Assembly (NCBI RefSeq): GCF_003334405.1
Contig: NZ_QOWM01000005.1
DNA from: Escherichia coli
GTDB lineage: Bacteria > Pseudomonadota > Gammaproteobacteria > Enterobacterales > Enterobacteriaceae
Length of the DNA: 64,000 nucleotides
Direction: 5' to 3' (one strand)
Shown here piece by piece: positions 20,537 through 61,833 of the stretch (its first letter is position 1; each line of letters starts with the position of its first letter). The notes under the pieces are model-generated. The model had not been told where the DNA came from. It did not search any database and worked only from the letters and a program-made list of their open reading frames with translations. A program made the translations under genes and the position numbers.

Positions 20537-22587
20537 TGAGCGCGCTCAACTCCCTGCCATTACCGGTGGTCAGGCTGCTGGCGTTCTTTCATGAAGAGTT
20601 AAGCGAGCGGCGACCAGGTCGCGTGCCGCAGACCGTGCAACTCTGGGTAGGCTGCCTGCTGGTGATTCTGATCTCGATGACCTTTGAGATCCCTTTTGTG
20701 GCGTTATCGCTGGCAGTGCTGTTTTACGGTATTCAGTCGAACGCGTTTTACACCAAATTTGTCGCGATCTTGTTTGTGGTTGCCACGGTGCTGGAGATCG
20801 GCAGCCTGTTTTTGATCTACAAATGGTCATACGGCGAACCGTTGATCCGATTGATCATCGCCGGACCGATCCTGATGGGCTGCATGTTTTTGATGCGCAC
20901 CCATCGCTTGGGGCTGGTCTTTTTCGCCGTCGCCATTGTCGCTATTTACGGGCAAACCTTCCCCGCCATGCTCGACTATCCGGAAGTGGTCGTGCGCTTA
21001 ACGCTGTGGTGTATCGTTGTTGGCCTCTATCCAACCTTGCTGATGACGTTAATCGGCGTGCTGTGGTTTCCCAGTCGTGCCATTTCGCAAATGCATCAGG
21101 CGCTTAATGATCGGCTTGATGATGCCATTAGTCACCTGACAGACAGCCTCGCACCGCTACCCGAAACGCGGATTGAAAGAGAGGCGCTGGCGCTACAAAA
21201 ACTCAATGTCTTTTGCCTCGCGGACGATGCCAACTGGCGAACTCAAAACGCATGGTGGCAAAGCTGCGTGGCAACGGTAACCTACATTTACTCGACGCTG
21301 AATCGCTACGATCCCACCTCTTTTGCTGATTCTCAGGCAATTATTGAATTCCGACAAAAATTAGCTTCAGAAATCAACAAGCTGCAGCATGCCGTTGCTG
21401 AAGGTCAGTGCTGGCAAAGCGACTGGCGGATCAGTGAAAGTGAAGCGATGGCGGCACGGGAATGTAACCTGGAGAATATCTGCCAGACGTTGTTACAACT
21501 GGGTCAGATGGACCCGAATACGCCGCCAACGCCCGCAGCCAAACCGCCATCAATGGCCGCCGATGCTTTTACCAATCCAGACTATATGCGCTACGCGGTA
21601 AAAACGCTGCTCGCCTGTTTGATCTGTTACACCTTTTACAGCGGCGTGGACTGGGAAGGCATTCACACCTGTATGCTGACATGCGTGATCGTCGCTAACC
21701 CAAATGTCGGTTCGTCGTACCAGAAGATGGTGCTGCGTTTTGGCGGGGCCTTTTGCGGCGCGATTCTGGCGCTGTTATTCACGCTACTGGTCATGCCCTG
21801 GCTGGACAATATTGTCGAATTGCTGTTTGTGCTGGCACCGATTTTCCTGTTGGGCGCATGGATTGCCACCAGCTCTGAACGCTCTTCTTATATCGGCACA
21901 CAGATGGTGGTCACCTTCGCGCTCGCCACGCTCGAAAACGTTTTTGGCCCAGTGTACGACCTGGTGGAAATTCGCGATCGCGCCCTGGGTATCATCATTG
22001 GTACCGTGGTGTCCGCGGTGATTTACACCTTTGTCTGGCCTGAAAGTGAAGCGCGCACACTGCCGCAAAAACTGGCTGGCACGCTGGGTATGTTAAGTAA
22101 AGTAATGCGGATCCCACGCCAGCAGGAAGTCACGGCTCTGCGCACTTATCTGCAAATTCGTATCGGTCTGCATGCGGCGTTTAATGCCTGTGAAGAGATG
22201 TGCCAACGCGTGGCGCTGGAGCGTCAACTGGACAGCGAAGAACGCGCATTACTGATTGAACGTTCGCAAACGGTTATTCGTCAGGGCCGCGATCTTCTTC
22301 ACGCCTGGGATGCCACCTGGAACTCGGCGCAGGCGCTGGATAACGCACTACAGCCGGACAGAGCAGGTCAGTTTGCCGACGCCCTGGAGAAATACGCTGC
22401 CGGTCTGGCAACCGCACTCAGCCGTTCTCCTCAAATAACGCTTGAAGAGACACCCGCCTCTCAGGCCATCCTGCCCACCTTATTAAAACAGGAGCAACAC
22501 GTCTGCCAGCTTTTCGCCCGCTTGCCAGACTGGACAGCCCCGGCATTAACGCCCGCCACGGAACAGGCACAAGGAGCCACGCAATGA
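20536..22587 (+). CDS. mdtO: Multidrug efflux inner membrane component (FUSC/aromatic acid exporter-like)
   Basis: 683-aa ORF overlapping mdtN stop (TAATG). Confidence 0.92.
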   Translation: MSALNSLPLPVVRLLAFFHEELSERRPGRVPQTVQLWVGCLLVILISMTFEIPFVALSLAVLFYGIQSNAFYTKFVAILFVVATVLEIGSLFLIYKWSYGEPLIRLIIAGPILMGCMFLMRTHRLGLVFFAVAIVAIYGQTFPAMLDYPEVVVRLTLWCIVVGLYPTLLMTLIGVLWFPSRAISQMHQALNDRLDDAISHLTDSLAPLPETRIEREALALQKLNVFCLADDANWRTQNAWWQSCVATVTYIYSTLNRYDPTSFADSQAIIEFRQKLASEINKLQHAVAEGQCWQSDWRISESEAMAARECNLENICQTLLQLGQMDPNTPPTPAAKPPSMAADAFTNPDYMRYAVKTLLACLICYTFYSGVDWEGIHTCMLTCVIVANPNVGSSYQKMVLRFGGAFCGAILALLFTLLVMPWLDNIVELLFVLAPIFLLGAWIATSSERSSYIGTQMVVTFALATLENVFGPVYDLVEIRDRALGIIIGTVVSAVIYTFVWPESEARTLPQKLAGTLGMLSKVMRIPRQQEVTALRTYLQIRIGLHAAFNACEEMCQRVALERQLDSEERALLIERSQTVIRQGRDLLHAWDATWNSAQALDNALQPDRAGQFADALEKYAAGLATALSRSPQITLEETPASQAILPTLLKQEQHVCQLFARLPDWTAPALTPATEQAQGATQ

Positions 22588-24110: not shown

Positions 24111-24180
24111 CAGCCTGTTTTTCGTCAGAGTTTTGAATAAATAGTGCCCGTAATATCAGGGAATGACCCCACATAAAATG

Positions 24181-24196
24181 TGGCATAAAAGATGCA
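24181..24196 (+). promoter_or_regulatory. Sigma-54 (-24/-12) promoter of fdhF
   Basis: TGGCATAAAAGATGCA matches TGGCAC-N5-TTGCA with exact GG...GC spacing, 50 bp upstream of fdhF ATG. Confidence 0.8.
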
Positions 24197-29363: not shown

Positions 29364-29960
29364 TTAATCCAATCTCCGCTGCAACAATTTCGCCATATTA
29401 ATCGACTCAACCAGCTGTGTTCGGTTAACTCGCGGTGAGTTGAGATCCATCACTTTTTGCCATAGTTCGATGGCTTGCGCGTAGTTCGCCTGCATAAACG
29501 CATCGGAAGCCAGCAGCATCAGGGCGGTGATTTCATTACTGTCCAGCGCGAGGGCTTTGTCGATCATTGCGCGAGTCTGGGCGGTCATATGCTGGCTGGC
29601 CTGGTAATAAAGCACCGTCGCCAGCGCCGCATACAGTTCAGCGTTCTCACCACGTAGTTGCAACGCCTGACGGTACGCCAGCAACGAATTGCTGTAATCG
29701 TTTTGCCACAGATAGTACTCGCCCAGTAACGCCCACTGTTCGCTGTTTTGTGGATTAGCGCGGATTTTATCCTGCAATGCCTGAAGCTGCGCTTCCGGGG
29801 TTTGCTGGCTGGCAAACTGATGTAGCGGATCGCGCTGACGCTGATACTCCGCACGTACCGCCTGCCATTTTGGGCTTAACAGATAACTGCCGACACAGAG
29901 AAATACCATCAATATCGTGAGTGTTGTCAGCATTTTCACCGGTATTTTGGGCTGTTTCAT
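29364..29960 (-). CDS. nrfG: TPR-repeat formate-dependent nitrite reductase assembly protein NrfG
   Basis: ORF 29364..30026 trimmed to ATG ([14 protein letters not shown]...), 198 aa; overlaps nrfF stop. Confidence 0.88.
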
Positions 29961-49630: not shown

Positions 49631-52453
49631 ATGGATAAGATCGAAGTTCGGGGCGCCCGCACCCATAATCTCAAAAACATCAACCTCGTTATCCCCCGCG
49701 ACAAGCTCATTGTCGTGACCGGGCTTTCGGGTTCTGGCAAATCCTCGCTCGCTTTCGACACCTTATATGCCGAAGGGCAGCGCCGTTACGTTGAATCCCT
49801 TTCCGCCTACGCGCGGCAGTTTCTGTCACTGATGGAAAAGCCGGACGTCGATCATATTGAGGGGCTTTCTCCTGCCATCTCAATTGAGCAGAAATCGACG
49901 TCTCATAACCCGCGTTCTACGGTGGGGACAATCACCGAAATCCACGACTATTTGCGTTTGTTATTCGCCCGCGTTGGCGAGCCGCGCTGTCCGGACCACG
50001 ACGTCCCGCTGGCGGCGCAAACCGTCAGCCAGATGGTGGATAACGTGCTGTCGCAGCCGGAAGGCAAGCGTCTGATGCTACTCGCGCCAATCATTAAAGA
50101 GCGCAAAGGCGAACACACCAAAACGCTGGAGAACCTGGCAAGCCAGGGCTACATCCGTGCTCGTATTGATGGCGAAGTCTGCGATCTTTCCGATCCGCCA
50201 AAACTGGAACTGCAAAAGAAACATACCATTGAAGTGGTGGTTGATCGCTTCAAGGTGCGTGACGATCTTACCCAACGTCTTGCCGAGTCATTTGAAACCG
50301 CGCTGGAGCTTTCCGGTGGTACCGCGGTAGTGGCGGATATGGACGACCCGAAAGCGGAAGAGCTGCTGTTCTCCGCCAACTTCGCCTGCCCAATTTGCGG
50401 CTACAGTATGCGTGAACTGGAGCCGCGACTGTTTTCGTTTAACAACCCGGCGGGGGCCTGCCCGACCTGCGACGGCCTTGGCGTACAGCAATATTTCGAT
50501 CCTGATCGAGTGATCCAGAATCCGGAACTGTCGCTGGCTGGTGGTGCGATCCGTGGCTGGGATCGCCGCAACTTCTATTATTTCCAGATGCTGAAATCGC
50601 TGGCAGATCACTATAAGTTCGACGTCGAAGCGCCGTGGGGCAGCCTGAGCGCGAACGTGCATAAAGTGGTGTTGTACGGTTCTGGCAAAGAAAACATTGA
50701 ATTCAAATACATGAACGATCGTGGCGATACCTCCATTCGTCGTCATCCGTTCGAAGGCGTGCTGCATAATATGGAGCGCCGCTATAAAGAGACGGAATCC
50801 AGCGCGGTACGCGAAGAATTAGCCAAGTTTATCAGTAATCGTCCGTGCGCCAGCTGCGAAGGGACGCGTCTGCGTCGGGAAGCGCGCCACGTGTATGTCG
50901 AGAATACGCCGCTGCCTGCTATCTCCGACATGAGCATTGGTCATGCGATGGAATTCTTCAACAATCTCAAACTCGCAGGTCAGCGGGCGAAGATTGCAGA
51001 AAAAATCCTTAAAGAGATCGGCGATCGTCTGAAATTCCTCGTTAACGTCGGCCTGAATTACCTGACGCTTTCCCGCTCGGCAGAAACGCTTTCTGGCGGT
51101 GAAGCACAGCGTATCCGTCTGGCGAGCCAGATTGGTGCGGGCCTGGTTGGCGTTATGTACGTGCTGGACGAGCCGTCTATCGGCCTGCACCAGCGTGATA
51201 ACGAGCGCCTGTTGGGTACGCTTATCCATCTGCGCGATCTCGGTAATACCGTGATTGTGGTGGAGCACGACGAAGACGCAATTCGCGCCGCTGACCATGT
51301 GATCGACATTGGCCCGGGCGCAGGTGTTCACGGCGGTGAAGTGGTCGCAGAAGGTCCGCTGGAAGCGATTATGGCGGTGCCGGAGTCGTTGACCGGGCAG
51401 TACATGAGCGGCAAACGCAAGATTGAAGTGCCGAAGAAACGCGTTCCGGCGAATCCGGAAAAAGTGCTGAAGCTGACAGGCGCACGCGGCAACAACCTGA
51501 AGGACGTGACGCTGACGCTGCCGGTGGGTCTGTTTACCTGCATCACCGGGGTTTCAGGTTCCGGTAAATCGACGCTGATTAACGACACACTGTTCCCGAT
51601 TGCCCAACGCCAGTTGAATGGGGCGACCATCGCCGAACCAGCACCGTATCGCGATATTCAGGGGCTGGAGCATTTCGATAAAGTGATCGATATCGACCAA
51701 AGCCCAATTGGTCGTACTCCACGTTCTAACCCGGCGACCTATACCGGCGTGTTTACGCCTGTGCGCGAACTGTTTGCGGGCGTACCGGAATCCCGTGCGC
51801 GCGGCTATACGCCGGGACGTTTCAGCTTTAACGTTCGTGGCGGACGCTGCGAGGCCTGTCAGGGCGATGGCGTGATCAAAGTGGAGATGCACTTCCTGCC
51901 GGATATCTACGTGCCGTGCGACCAGTGCAAAGGTAAACGCTATAACCGTGAAACGCTGGAGATTAAGTACAAAGGCAAAACCATCCACGAAGTGCTGGAT
52001 ATGACCATCGAAGAGGCGCGTGAGTTCTTTGATGCCGTACCTGCACTGGCGCGTAAGCTGCAAACGTTGATGGACGTTGGCCTGACGTACATTCGACTGG
52101 GGCAGTCCGCAACCACCCTTTCAGGCGGTGAAGCCCAGCGCGTGAAGCTGGCGCGTGAACTGTCAAAACGCGGCACCGGGCAGACGCTGTATATTCTCGA
52201 CGAGCCGACCACCGGTCTGCACTTCGCCGATATTCAGCAACTGCTCGACGTACTGCATAAACTGCGCGATCAGGGCAACACCATTGTGGTGATTGAGCAC
52301 AATCTCGACGTGATCAAAACCGCTGACTGGATTGTCGACCTGGGACCAGAAGGCGGCAGTGGTGGCGGCGAGATCCTCGTCTCCGGTACGCCAGAAACCG
52401 TCGCGGAGTGCGAAGCATCACACACGGCACGCTTCCTTAAGCCGATGCTGTAA
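49631..52453 (+). CDS. uvrA: Excinuclease ABC subunit A
   Basis: 940-aa [22 protein letters not shown]...; two ABC ATPase modules and zinc-finger cysteine pairs. Confidence 0.96.
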
Positions 52454-59270: not shown

Positions 59271-60254
59271 ATGGCAACACGAATTGAATTTCACAAGCAC
59301 GGTGGCCCGGAAGTACTTCAAGCCGTAGAGTTCACTCCTGCCGATCCGGCGGAGAATGAAATCCAGGTCGAAAATAAAGCCATCGGCATCAATTTTATCG
59401 ACACATATATCCGCAGCGGCCTTTACCCGCCGCCATCGCTACCCAGCGGATTAGGCACCGAAGCAGCAGGCATCGTGAGTAAAGTCGGCAGTGGTGTAAA
59501 GCATATTAAGGCAGGCGATCGTGTAGTCTATGCGCAGTCGGCGTTAGGCGCTTACAGCTCTGTGCATAACATTATTGCGGATAAAGCGGCGATTCTGCCT
59601 GCGGCAATTTCTTTTGAGCAAGCTGCGGCATCCTTCCTGAAAGGCTTAACGGTTTATTATCTGCTGCGCAAAACCTATGAAATTAAACCCGATGAACAGT
59701 TCCTGTTCCACGCAGCGGCTGGCGGCGTTGGCTTAATTGCCTGCCAGTGGGCAAAAGCCCTGGGCGCGAAACTTATCGGCACCGTAGGAACCGCGCAAAA
59801 AGCGCAGAGCGCGCTAAAAGCGGGCGCGTGGCAGGTTATTAACTATCGTGAAGAGGATCTGGTCGAGCGGTTAAAAGAGATCACCGGCGGTAAGAAAGTG
59901 CGCGTGGTGTACGATTCCGTGGGCAGAGACACCTGGGAACGGTCGCTGGATTGCCTGCAACGCCGCGGCTTAATGGTCAGTTTTGGCAACTCATCAGGTG
60001 CGGTTACCGGTGTGAACTTAGGCATTCTCAATCAAAAAGGCTCGTTGTATGTGACACGCCCTTCCCTGCAAGGCTATATCACCACGCGGGAGGAATTAAC
60101 CGAGGCCAGTAATGAACTGTTCTCTTTGATTGCCAGCGGTGTGATTAAGGTCGATGTCGCCGAGCAGCAGAAATATCCGCTGAAGGATGCGCAGCGTGCG
60201 CATGAGATTCTGGAAAGCCGGGCGACGCAAGGTTCCAGCCTGCTGATTCCATAA
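59271..60254 (+). CDS. qor: NADPH:quinone oxidoreductase (zeta-crystallin-like)
   Basis: ORF 59163..60254 trimmed to ATG 59271 with ggagga RBS (MATRIEFHKHGGPEVLQ...), 327 aa. Confidence 0.92.
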   Translation: MATRIEFHKHGGPEVLQAVEFTPADPAENEIQVENKAIGINFIDTYIRSGLYPPPSLPSGLGTEAAGIVSKVGSGVKHIKAGDRVVYAQSALGAYSSVHNIIADKAAILPAAISFEQAAASFLKGLTVYYLLRKTYEIKPDEQFLFHAAAGGVGLIACQWAKALGAKLIGTVGTAQKAQSALKAGAWQVINYREEDLVERLKEITGGKKVRVVYDSVGRDTWERSLDCLQRRGLMVSFGNSSGAVTGVNLGILNQKGSLYVTRPSLQGYITTREELTEASNELFSLIASGVIKVDVAEQQKYPLKDAQRAHEILESRATQGSSLLIP

Positions 60255-60261
60255 AAGAAAT

Positions 60262-60293
60262 AGGGCTTCCACCTGGGAAGCCCTTTCTTTTTA
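60262..60293. terminator. Intrinsic terminator after qor (shared region with convergent pspG)
   Basis: agggcttcc-acct-gggaagccct followed by ttcttttta. Confidence 0.85.
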
Positions 60294-60419
60294 TAGTTCG
60301 GCTGTATGTAGGGTACAGCACGATGAATCTGTTAGAGGCGCAATAGTGACAGATTTGATTATCAATTCCTATTTTGTTCTAAGGATAAAACCTTAGGTTG
60401 TGATCATCCGCACAATCCC

Positions 60420-60662
60420 TTAGTAACGCCAGCGGTCATAACGCTGATATTTCGGCACTTTTGGTGCTTTAATCGCCTTAATAACCCACACCACCGCAAT
60501 CGCCAGTAGTAACCACGGCAGCAACTTAATCATCAATGCCAGCATACCGCCGAGGAACATAATGGCCGTCGCCACAACCAGCGCGGCGATAATGCCCAGC
60601 AACGAAACGCCGGTGACCATCAGCATGACAAAAAAGCCAATCACAAAAAGTAGTTCCAGCAT
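60420..60662 (-). CDS. pspG: Phage shock protein G (small membrane protein)
   Basis: ORF 60420..60872 trimmed to ATG 60662 (MLELLFVIGFFVMLMVTGVSL...), 80 aa, two TM helices. Confidence 0.88.
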   Translation of the reverse strand: MLELLFVIGFFVMLMVTGVSLLGIIAALVVATAIMFLGGMLALMIKLLPWLLLAIAVVWVIKAIKAPKVPKYQRYDRWRY

Positions 60663-60693
60663 GATGCTCTCCCAAATATGAAATCTCTTGCTG

Positions 60694-60716
60694 GCATTAC
60701 AAGAATCATGCCAAAA
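60694..60716 (-). promoter_or_regulatory. Candidate sigma-54 promoter of pspG (TGGCATGATTCTTGTA on minus strand) with IHF-like site just upstream (60721-60735)
   Basis: TGGCAT-N5-TTGT on minus strand about 32 bp upstream of pspG ATG; -12 element is TTGT not TTGC, so match is imperfect. Confidence 0.5.
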
Positions 60717-60795
60717 ATAATCTATTGATTTAACAGCAAAACGCCCCGCGACGGTGCGCAGGGCGTGGTGAATTTGACTACTTTTTGGTGAAAAG

Positions 60796-61833
60796 TTAAC
60801 GCTTATCCGCCACCAGTTTGAGCGCGTGTTCCAGCACATTAATGTCTGCACCCGCTTTATGGGCATTTTCACTTAAATAACGCCGCCACTGCCGCGCGCC
60901 AGGAATACCCTGGAACAAGCCCAACATATGCCGGGTAATATGGCCGAGATACGTCCCCTGGCTGAGTTCACGCTCAATGTACGGATACATGGCGCGCACT
61001 ACCGCCACCGGATCGGCATCGGTATCCGAGGAACCAAAGATCTCCCGGTCTACCGCCGCCAGAATACCCGGATTCTGATACGCCTCGCGCCCGACCATCA
61101 CGCCATCCATATGTTGCAGGTGTGCTTTGGCCTCTTCCAGCGACTTGATACCACCGTTAATCGACATTGTCAGATGCGGAAAGTCACGCTTCAGTTGATA
61201 CACACGCGGATAATCGAGCGGCGGGATTTCACGGTTTTCTTTCGGGCTTAACCCCGAAAGCCAGGCTTTACGTGCGTGGATGATGAACATCTCACACTCG
61301 CCTTTGCCGGAAACGGTATTGATGAAATCGCAGAGAAATTCATAGCTGTCCTGGTCGTCGATGCCAATACGCGTTTTCACCGTCACCGGAATCGACACCA
61401 CATCGCGCATCGCTTTCACGCAGTCGGCAACCAGCTGCGCATTACCCATCAGACACGCACCAAACATGCCGTTCTGCACCCGGTCAGACGGGCAGCCGAC
61501 ATTCAGGTTGATCTCATCATATCCGCGCGCTTCTGCCAGCTTTGCACACTGCGCCAGCGCCGCCGGATCGCTACCGCCCAGTTGCAACGCTACCGGATGT
61601 TCTTCTTCACTGTACGCCAGATAATCACCTTTACCGTGAATAATCGCCCCTGTGGTCACCATTTCGGTATACAGCAACGTATTGCGGGAAAGCAGACGCA
61701 AGAAATAGCGGCAATGTCTGTCCGTCCAGTCGAGCATTGGTGCAACGCTAAACCGACCACTCCAGTGAACGTCAGTTTTTTCAGGCATTGCGCTGGTTTG
61801 GTTGATTTTTTGCATTTCAGAATTACCGTGCAT
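60796..61833 (-). CDS. dusA: tRNA-dihydrouridine(20/20a) synthase
   Basis: ORF 60796..61839 (TTG) trimmed to first ATG 61833 ([13 protein letters not shown]...), 345 aa; TIM-barrel Dus family. Confidence 0.9.

Follow-up and report, generated by a model that had tools for sequence, protein, structure and literature searches.

The pspG promoter has served as a model enhancer-dependent promoter since 2004, and pspG is an accepted member of the PspF regulon. Lloyd et al. reportedly found in 2004 that yjbO/pspG is transcribed by sigma-54 RNA polymerase, with PspF and IHF as activators and PspA as negative regulator. Jovanovic 2010 (PMC3068692) states that pspG requires sigma-54 and PspF, and PspF-dependent, PspA-repressed induction by membrane stress is published (PMC3068692; Mehta 2013, PMC3709507). 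PspF binds the UASs of both pspA (two UASs, 100-fold induced) and pspG (one UAS, 20-fold induced), and deletion of the pspG promoter alters PspF dynamics (Mehta 2013, PMC3709507). In a ChIP-seq study of E. coli, TTGGCATGATTCTTGTA upstream of pspG was recorded as sigma-54 site OS40 and flagged 'C' (confirmed), with a distance of 25 to pspG that puts the predicted start 25 nt ahead of the gene (Table 1), and overexpression of sigma-54 upregulated pspG as one of only five genes having intergenic sites (Bonocora 2015, PMC4591121). The Salmonella Typhimurium orthologue (STM4244) is preceded by TGGCATGATTTTTGTAAG, which carries GT at -12 and was bound by sigma-54 in ChIP-chip (Samuels 2013, PMC3844500); this promoter differs from that of E. 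coli by a few substitutions. For pspA, the GT at -12 has been termed unusual and is conserved in almost all species (Huvet 2011).

The sigma-54 promoter identity of the region upstream of pspG is therefore established and already published knowledge, and as the promoter was known, its recovery here carries little weight as a discovery: the finding is correct but ordinary. The comparative data provide a base-level map of enhancer, embedded dusA terminator, IHF site, promoter and downstream pspH small RNA. The individual elements, their conservation, the collinearity with pspA and the hairpin covariation were computed here, and sigma-54 occupancy and the dependence on PspF and sigma-54 are taken from the papers cited above.

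Gene order and the dusA-pspG spacer

The window analyzed is a 64,000-nt stretch of Escherichia coli DNA, of which positions 60200-60900 match E. coli K-12 MG1655 at 100% identity and are present in 5,426/5,426 complete E. coli genomes. RefSeq features mapped onto the window were dnaB, qorA, pspH, pspG and dusA. The pspG coding sequence (60420-60662, minus strand; 80 codons plus stop) follows a GGGAGAG Shine-Dalgarno sequence (60673-60667, minus strand) and was identified by its open reading frame and translation, by RefSeq annotation and by a score of 90.1 bits against the NCBIfam equivalog TIGR02975 (PspG; cut-off 53.7). An earlier note on this DNA had placed an 80-codon pspG between dusA and a convergent qor gene, which is the layout observed: dusA (tRNA dihydrouridine synthase A; 60796-61833, minus strand) lies upstream of pspG in the same orientation and ends at 60796, and qorA (quinone oxidoreductase; 59271-60254, plus strand; assigned from the mapped annotation and the ORF list) converges on pspG and ends at 60254. 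Every string quoted in that note was also found where it had been placed.

A scan with the PspG protein, using one genome per species, recovered 80 loci ranging from Escherichia to Yersinia, Rahnella and Brenneria. Same-orientation dusA was found upstream of pspG in 79 of these and convergent qorA downstream in 78, and the distance from the end of dusA to the promoter TGG was 83-89 nt in nearly all Enterobacteriaceae loci. The 74 distinct pspG upstream sequences from Enterobacteriaceae were used to build alignment A1. On the far side of pspG, a terminator scan of both strands identified a bidirectional intrinsic terminator (60262-60284) with a 9-bp GC-rich stem and T-runs on both strands, whose RNA folds reached -20.0 and -20.8 kcal/mol (z of -4.4 and -5.1); this hairpin is the end of qorA on the plus strand and of pspG/pspH on the minus strand.

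The 133-bp spacer between dusA and pspG (on the minus strand TAA-CTTTTCACCAAAAAGTAGTCAAATTCACCACGCCCTGCGCACCGTCGCGGGGCGTTTTGCTGTTAAATCAATAGATTATTTTTGGCATGATTCTTGTAATGCCAGCAAGAGATTTCATATTTGGGAGAGCATC-ATG) is, with high confidence, the enhancer-dependent sigma-54 promoter through which pspG belongs to the phage-shock (Psp) membrane-stress regulon. As dusA and pspG are co-oriented over so short a distance in 79 of 80 loci, and as many E. coli sigma-54 ChIP sites are not productive promoters (PMC4591121), pspG might instead be expressed mainly from a dusA-pspG transcript or a sigma-70 promoter, leaving the sigma-54 motif as a silent binding site. We consider this very improbable. A strong, covarying hairpin with a T-run stands between dusA and the promoter, and a sigma-70 scan returned no minus-strand candidate in the dusA-pspG spacer. 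The published evidence also argues against it, in that sigma-54 overexpression raised pspG and just four other genes with intergenic sites (PMC4591121) and pspG is induced 20-fold via PspF (PMC3709507).

The hairpin itself, identified in the terminator scan as the intrinsic terminator of dusA (60737-60766, minus strand), consists of a 10-bp stem and a 6-nt loop followed by TTTT (ACGCCCTGCG-CACCGT-CGCGGGGCGT, then TTTT) and separates the proximal PspF heptamer from the IHF core; it folds at -19.1 kcal/mol. In the 74 aligned sequences, pairing was seen in 96.4% of cells and compensatory changes were present in 8 of the 10 pairs; 0/500 shuffles performed as well and slid controls came nowhere near. 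The dusA hairpin is thus an RNA-level element, an intrinsic terminator embedded in the enhancer-promoter loop of pspG, where it probably insulates the pspG promoter.

The sigma-54 core and the inverted repeat

The sigma-54 promoter TTGGCATGATTCTTGTA (60698-60714, minus strand) carries GG at -25/-24 and, in place of GC, GT at -13/-12, with the string TGGCATGATTCTTGT located at 60713-60699 on the minus strand. The loose pattern TGGCAYN5TTGY occurred once in the window against 1.02 matches expected. When the window was scored with a PSSM trained on 41 published sigma-54 ChIP sites, with pspG left out, the pspG site ranked first of ~128,000 positions at 17.85 bits, a score attained by 12/100 shuffles. 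Given these background rates the motif by itself only suggests a promoter, and it is the position 44 nt before the ATG, the retention in 73/74 distinct orthologous regions and the published ChIP that establish the site as real. TGGCAYG was present in 73/74 distinct sequences of A1 (Escherichia to Klebsiella, Kluyvera and Leclercia) and TTGT at -12 in 70/74, as against TTGC in 1/74, giving a conserved core of the form TGGCAYG-N4-TTGTAA in 70-73 of the 74; the core was also found in Yersinia, Rahnella and Brenneria. Core columns held 1.6-2.0 bits of information versus 0-0.4 bits in the leader just downstream, and the pspG promoter is therefore under strong constraint. Together, conservation, PSSM rank and published ChIP bear out the minus-strand -24/-12 promoter that had been proposed from the sequence.

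With the GG at 60712/60711 taken as -25/-24, transcription is predicted to start at about 60687 (minus strand), which would produce a 25-nt leader. The T of TGGCA lies 51 nt from the ATG here and 50-62 nt in most Enterobacteriaceae loci; three loci have longer leaders (72-85 nt). In Salmonella enterica subspecies arizonae (L017:1435-1500) and diarizonae (L035:1436-1500), the leader contains a ~33-nt REP-like, GC-rich hairpin (…CCCGGTAAGCGC…GCCGGG…) that stretches it to ~85 nt. In Yersinia vastinensis (L078:1200-1294), the sigma-54 core was located 206 nt before the pspG ATG.

The -12 element had been described earlier as TTGT rather than TTGC, which is true and holds well beyond this genome. 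The E. coli pspA promoter reads TTGGCACGCAAATTGTA and therefore has TTGT as well. The GT at -12 is accordingly a conserved signature common to pspG and pspA and not a sign of decay or a defect. The pspG promoter is similar to generic IHF-assisted sigma-54 promoters in its GG at -24, the 4-5 nt spacing to -12, its upstream enhancer and the bend between them. It differs from them in the GT itself, as GC occupies this position in 37 of 42 intergenic sense sites and GT is found only at pspA, pspG and ygeW (PMC4591121). The sole TTGC among the 74 sequences was observed in Salmonella enterica subsp. diarizonae.

The promoter had also been described as built on a near-palindrome. This corresponds to a 6-nt inverted repeat, TGGCAT (60692-60697) and ATGCCA (60708-60713), with 10 nt between the arms; read on the minus strand, the arm at 60708-60713 belongs to the -24 element and the other, termed here the second arm, reads ATGCCA and covers -10 to -5 (60692-60697, minus strand; inverted repeat I5). 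By inspection, 7 of the 11 possible pairs of the dyad are complementary, including 1 of the 5 inner pairs. TGGCAT-N10-ATGCCA could in principle be functional itself, as the operator of a dimeric regulator or as a sigma-54 site readable in both directions: in this window its two 6-nt arms complement each other perfectly and could pair as RNA or single-stranded DNA at -6.5 kcal/mol. However, the z-score of this fold was only -1.9, with 11/200 shuffles folding equally well, and the repeat is one of eight inverted repeats of at least 6 nt within 191 nt. A palindromic operator should show both arms conserved or co-varying, whereas the second arm was fully complementary to the -24 arm in just 2/74 sequences; the commonest value was 3/6, which amounts to two conserved TTGTAAT bases plus chance. 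Other Escherichia genomes carry AATACC, AAAGCC or AATGGC at this position, and pspA has no such second arm. The plus-strand reading, CTGGCATTACAAGAATC, scored -9.27 bits with the sigma-54 PSSM, which ruled out a second sigma-54 site on that strand. As the second arm is not conserved and the opposite strand does not read as a promoter, the palindrome is incidental, and a function for the repeat is highly unlikely. The repeat arose by coincidence and is limited to a few Escherichia genomes, its second arm is not a functional element, and the description of the promoter as built on a palindrome finds no support. The value of this check lies in dismissing the palindrome and in showing the TTGT at -12 to be a conserved feature common to pspA.

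The remaining possibility, that the consensus match is a functionless product of chance, draws on the background rates given above (about one loose match per window and 12/100 shuffles) and has a negligible probability, being already refuted by a core that is invariant over at least 70 distinct sequences while the flanking leader varies and by ChIP occupancy published for two species (PMC4591121, PMC3844500).

IHF site, PspF enhancer and collinearity with pspA

An IHF-like sequence had been noted beside the promoter, and an exact match to the IHF core consensus WATCAANNNNTTR is present there in the form of AATCAATAGATTA (60730-60718, minus strand; -43 to -31), placed between enhancer and promoter. 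Within A1 its CA and TTA bases vary little or not at all, the full consensus being kept in 29/74 sequences under strict and 42/74 under relaxed matching, and the core aligns with a site at the equivalent position in pspA promoters. IHF dependence at pspG is probable, as suggested by this geometry and reportedly found by Lloyd et al.

Further upstream, the proximal PspF enhancer element TAGTCAAATTCACCA (60766-60780, minus strand; approximately -93 to -79) is near-invariant in A1 and holds an imperfect 11-bp dyad, GTCAAATTCAC. It can be aligned to pspA UAS elements from three genera and matches the pspA UAS consensus ATTCACCA drawn from nine genera. In Yersinia, the proximal element is a perfect 11-bp dyad (GTCAATTTGAC), and the order of dyad, hairpin, IHF core and promoter is kept. 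A TTCACCA heptamer at 60786-60792 (minus strand; -105 to -99) is a candidate second, half-site PspF element. The distal and proximal heptamers (60792-60786 and 60772-60766) are exactly 20 nt apart, the same spacing as in the pspA UAS pair, and the bipartite pattern TTCRCYA-N13-TTCRCYA was observed once in the window against 0.03 expected. The distal heptamer was present in 57/74 sequences, and both heptamers at the 20-nt spacing in 53/74. The distal element carries the right half of the dyad but lacks the left, and it may be non-functional, as the literature counts one UAS at pspG. Judging from spacing and conservation, the pspG enhancer may nevertheless be bipartite rather than consisting of "one UAS", with the distal heptamer having a putative role.

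An alignment with the pspA promoter, which had been proposed as a check, was run using the pspF-pspA spacers of E. coli and eight other genera (A2, nine genera) and a joint alignment of the pspG and pspA regions from three genera (A3). The invariant features of A2 were two TTCACCA-consensus heptamers that flank TAGTG at a spacing of exactly 20 nt, an IHF-like element, AATCAATAAGATA, and a promoter core, TTGGCAYG-N4-TTGTATTA (also expressed as TGGCAYG-N4-TTGTAWT). In A3 the two regions were collinear, in the order distal heptamer, T.GT, proximal heptamer, an 11-nt gap in pspG, IHF core and -24/-12 core, with TTGTA at -12 common to both. The pspG region therefore resembles that of E. coli pspA in its two TTC(A/G)C(C/T)A heptamers, which flank T.GT at a 20-nt spacing, in an IHF core ~14-16 nt before the TGG followed by TTGGCAYG-N4-TTGTA with GT at -12, and in sharing PspF as activator and PspA as negative regulator. 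In contrast to pspA, the pspG region has its enhancer and IHF site 11-13 bp closer together, its spacer is occupied by the hairpin of the dusA terminator instead of divergent pspF promoters, and its distal element is the right half of the dyad only. The sequence after -12 also differs (TTGTAAT in pspG, TTGTATT in pspA), as do the published UAS count and induction, with one UAS and 20-fold at pspG versus two and 100-fold at pspA (PMC3709507).

These elements suggest how the promoter would operate. Sigma-54 RNA polymerase would be held in a closed complex on TTGGCATG-N4-TTGTA (60714-60698, minus strand), with PspF bound at the upstream TTCACCA-type element or elements at approximately -79 to -105. 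IHF would bend the DNA at its core site (-43 to -31), and by virtue of this bend PspF would contact the polymerase. ATP hydrolysis by PspF would then remodel the complex and open the promoter, so that transcription would start ~25 nt before the pspG ATG. In the unstressed cell, PspF would be kept inactive by PspA until membrane stress occurs, and the dusA transcript would end at the hairpin in the loop region, which would leave pspG under stress control only.

More tentatively, and with less than even confidence, the pspG region may represent a copy of the pspA enhancer-promoter in compacted form, with a bipartite PspF enhancer, a loop-embedded dusA terminator and a GT at -12 that is Psp-regulon-wide. 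If this were true, the dusA hairpin sequence would double as a loop spacer and, as the strong compensatory changes in the embedded terminator imply, the PspF enhancer would be transcribed as the dusA 3' UTR; the GT at -12 would be tuned to PspF-activated promoters. Any novelty may be limited to the conserved distal half-site, where the literature has "one UAS", and to the position of the terminator within the loop, for neither of which was a description found in the papers examined.

pspH and further elements of the window

The second-best PSSM hit in the window, GTGGCATAAAAGATGCA at 24180-24196 (plus strand), is the known fdhF sigma-54 promoter, site OS41 (Bonocora 2015, PMC4591121), but this site was among those used for training. 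Four other hits of 14.3-15.4 bits, at 41693-41709, 29380-29396 and 22493-22509 (all minus strand) and at 52046-52062 (plus strand), fall within the range of shuffled sequences, and a further high hit lies at 2222-2238; these five are absent from the main text of PMC4591121.

The small RNA pspH (b4758; 60253-60363, minus strand), mapped from the NC_000913.3 annotation, overlaps the pspG 3' UTR and lies between pspG and the shared terminator, within the range covered by the earlier note, which did not include it. An Rfam scan of 60150-60900 gave no match for pspH; its only hits were two to ctRNA, both below threshold (21 bits, with 50 needed) and both on the hairpin that terminates qorA and pspG. 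pspH has been described as an Hfq-dependent sponge of the sRNA Spf (Melamed 2016, PMC5145812). Its sequence was 80-97% identical in 75/80 orthologous loci, and it may have its own promoter. A further short hairpin, CTAAGG-TTTTAT-CCTTAG (60379-60396, minus strand), follows the pspG stop codon by ~25 nt and closely precedes the annotated 5' end of pspH; it could serve as a signal for processing or pausing, or belong to a pspH promoter region.
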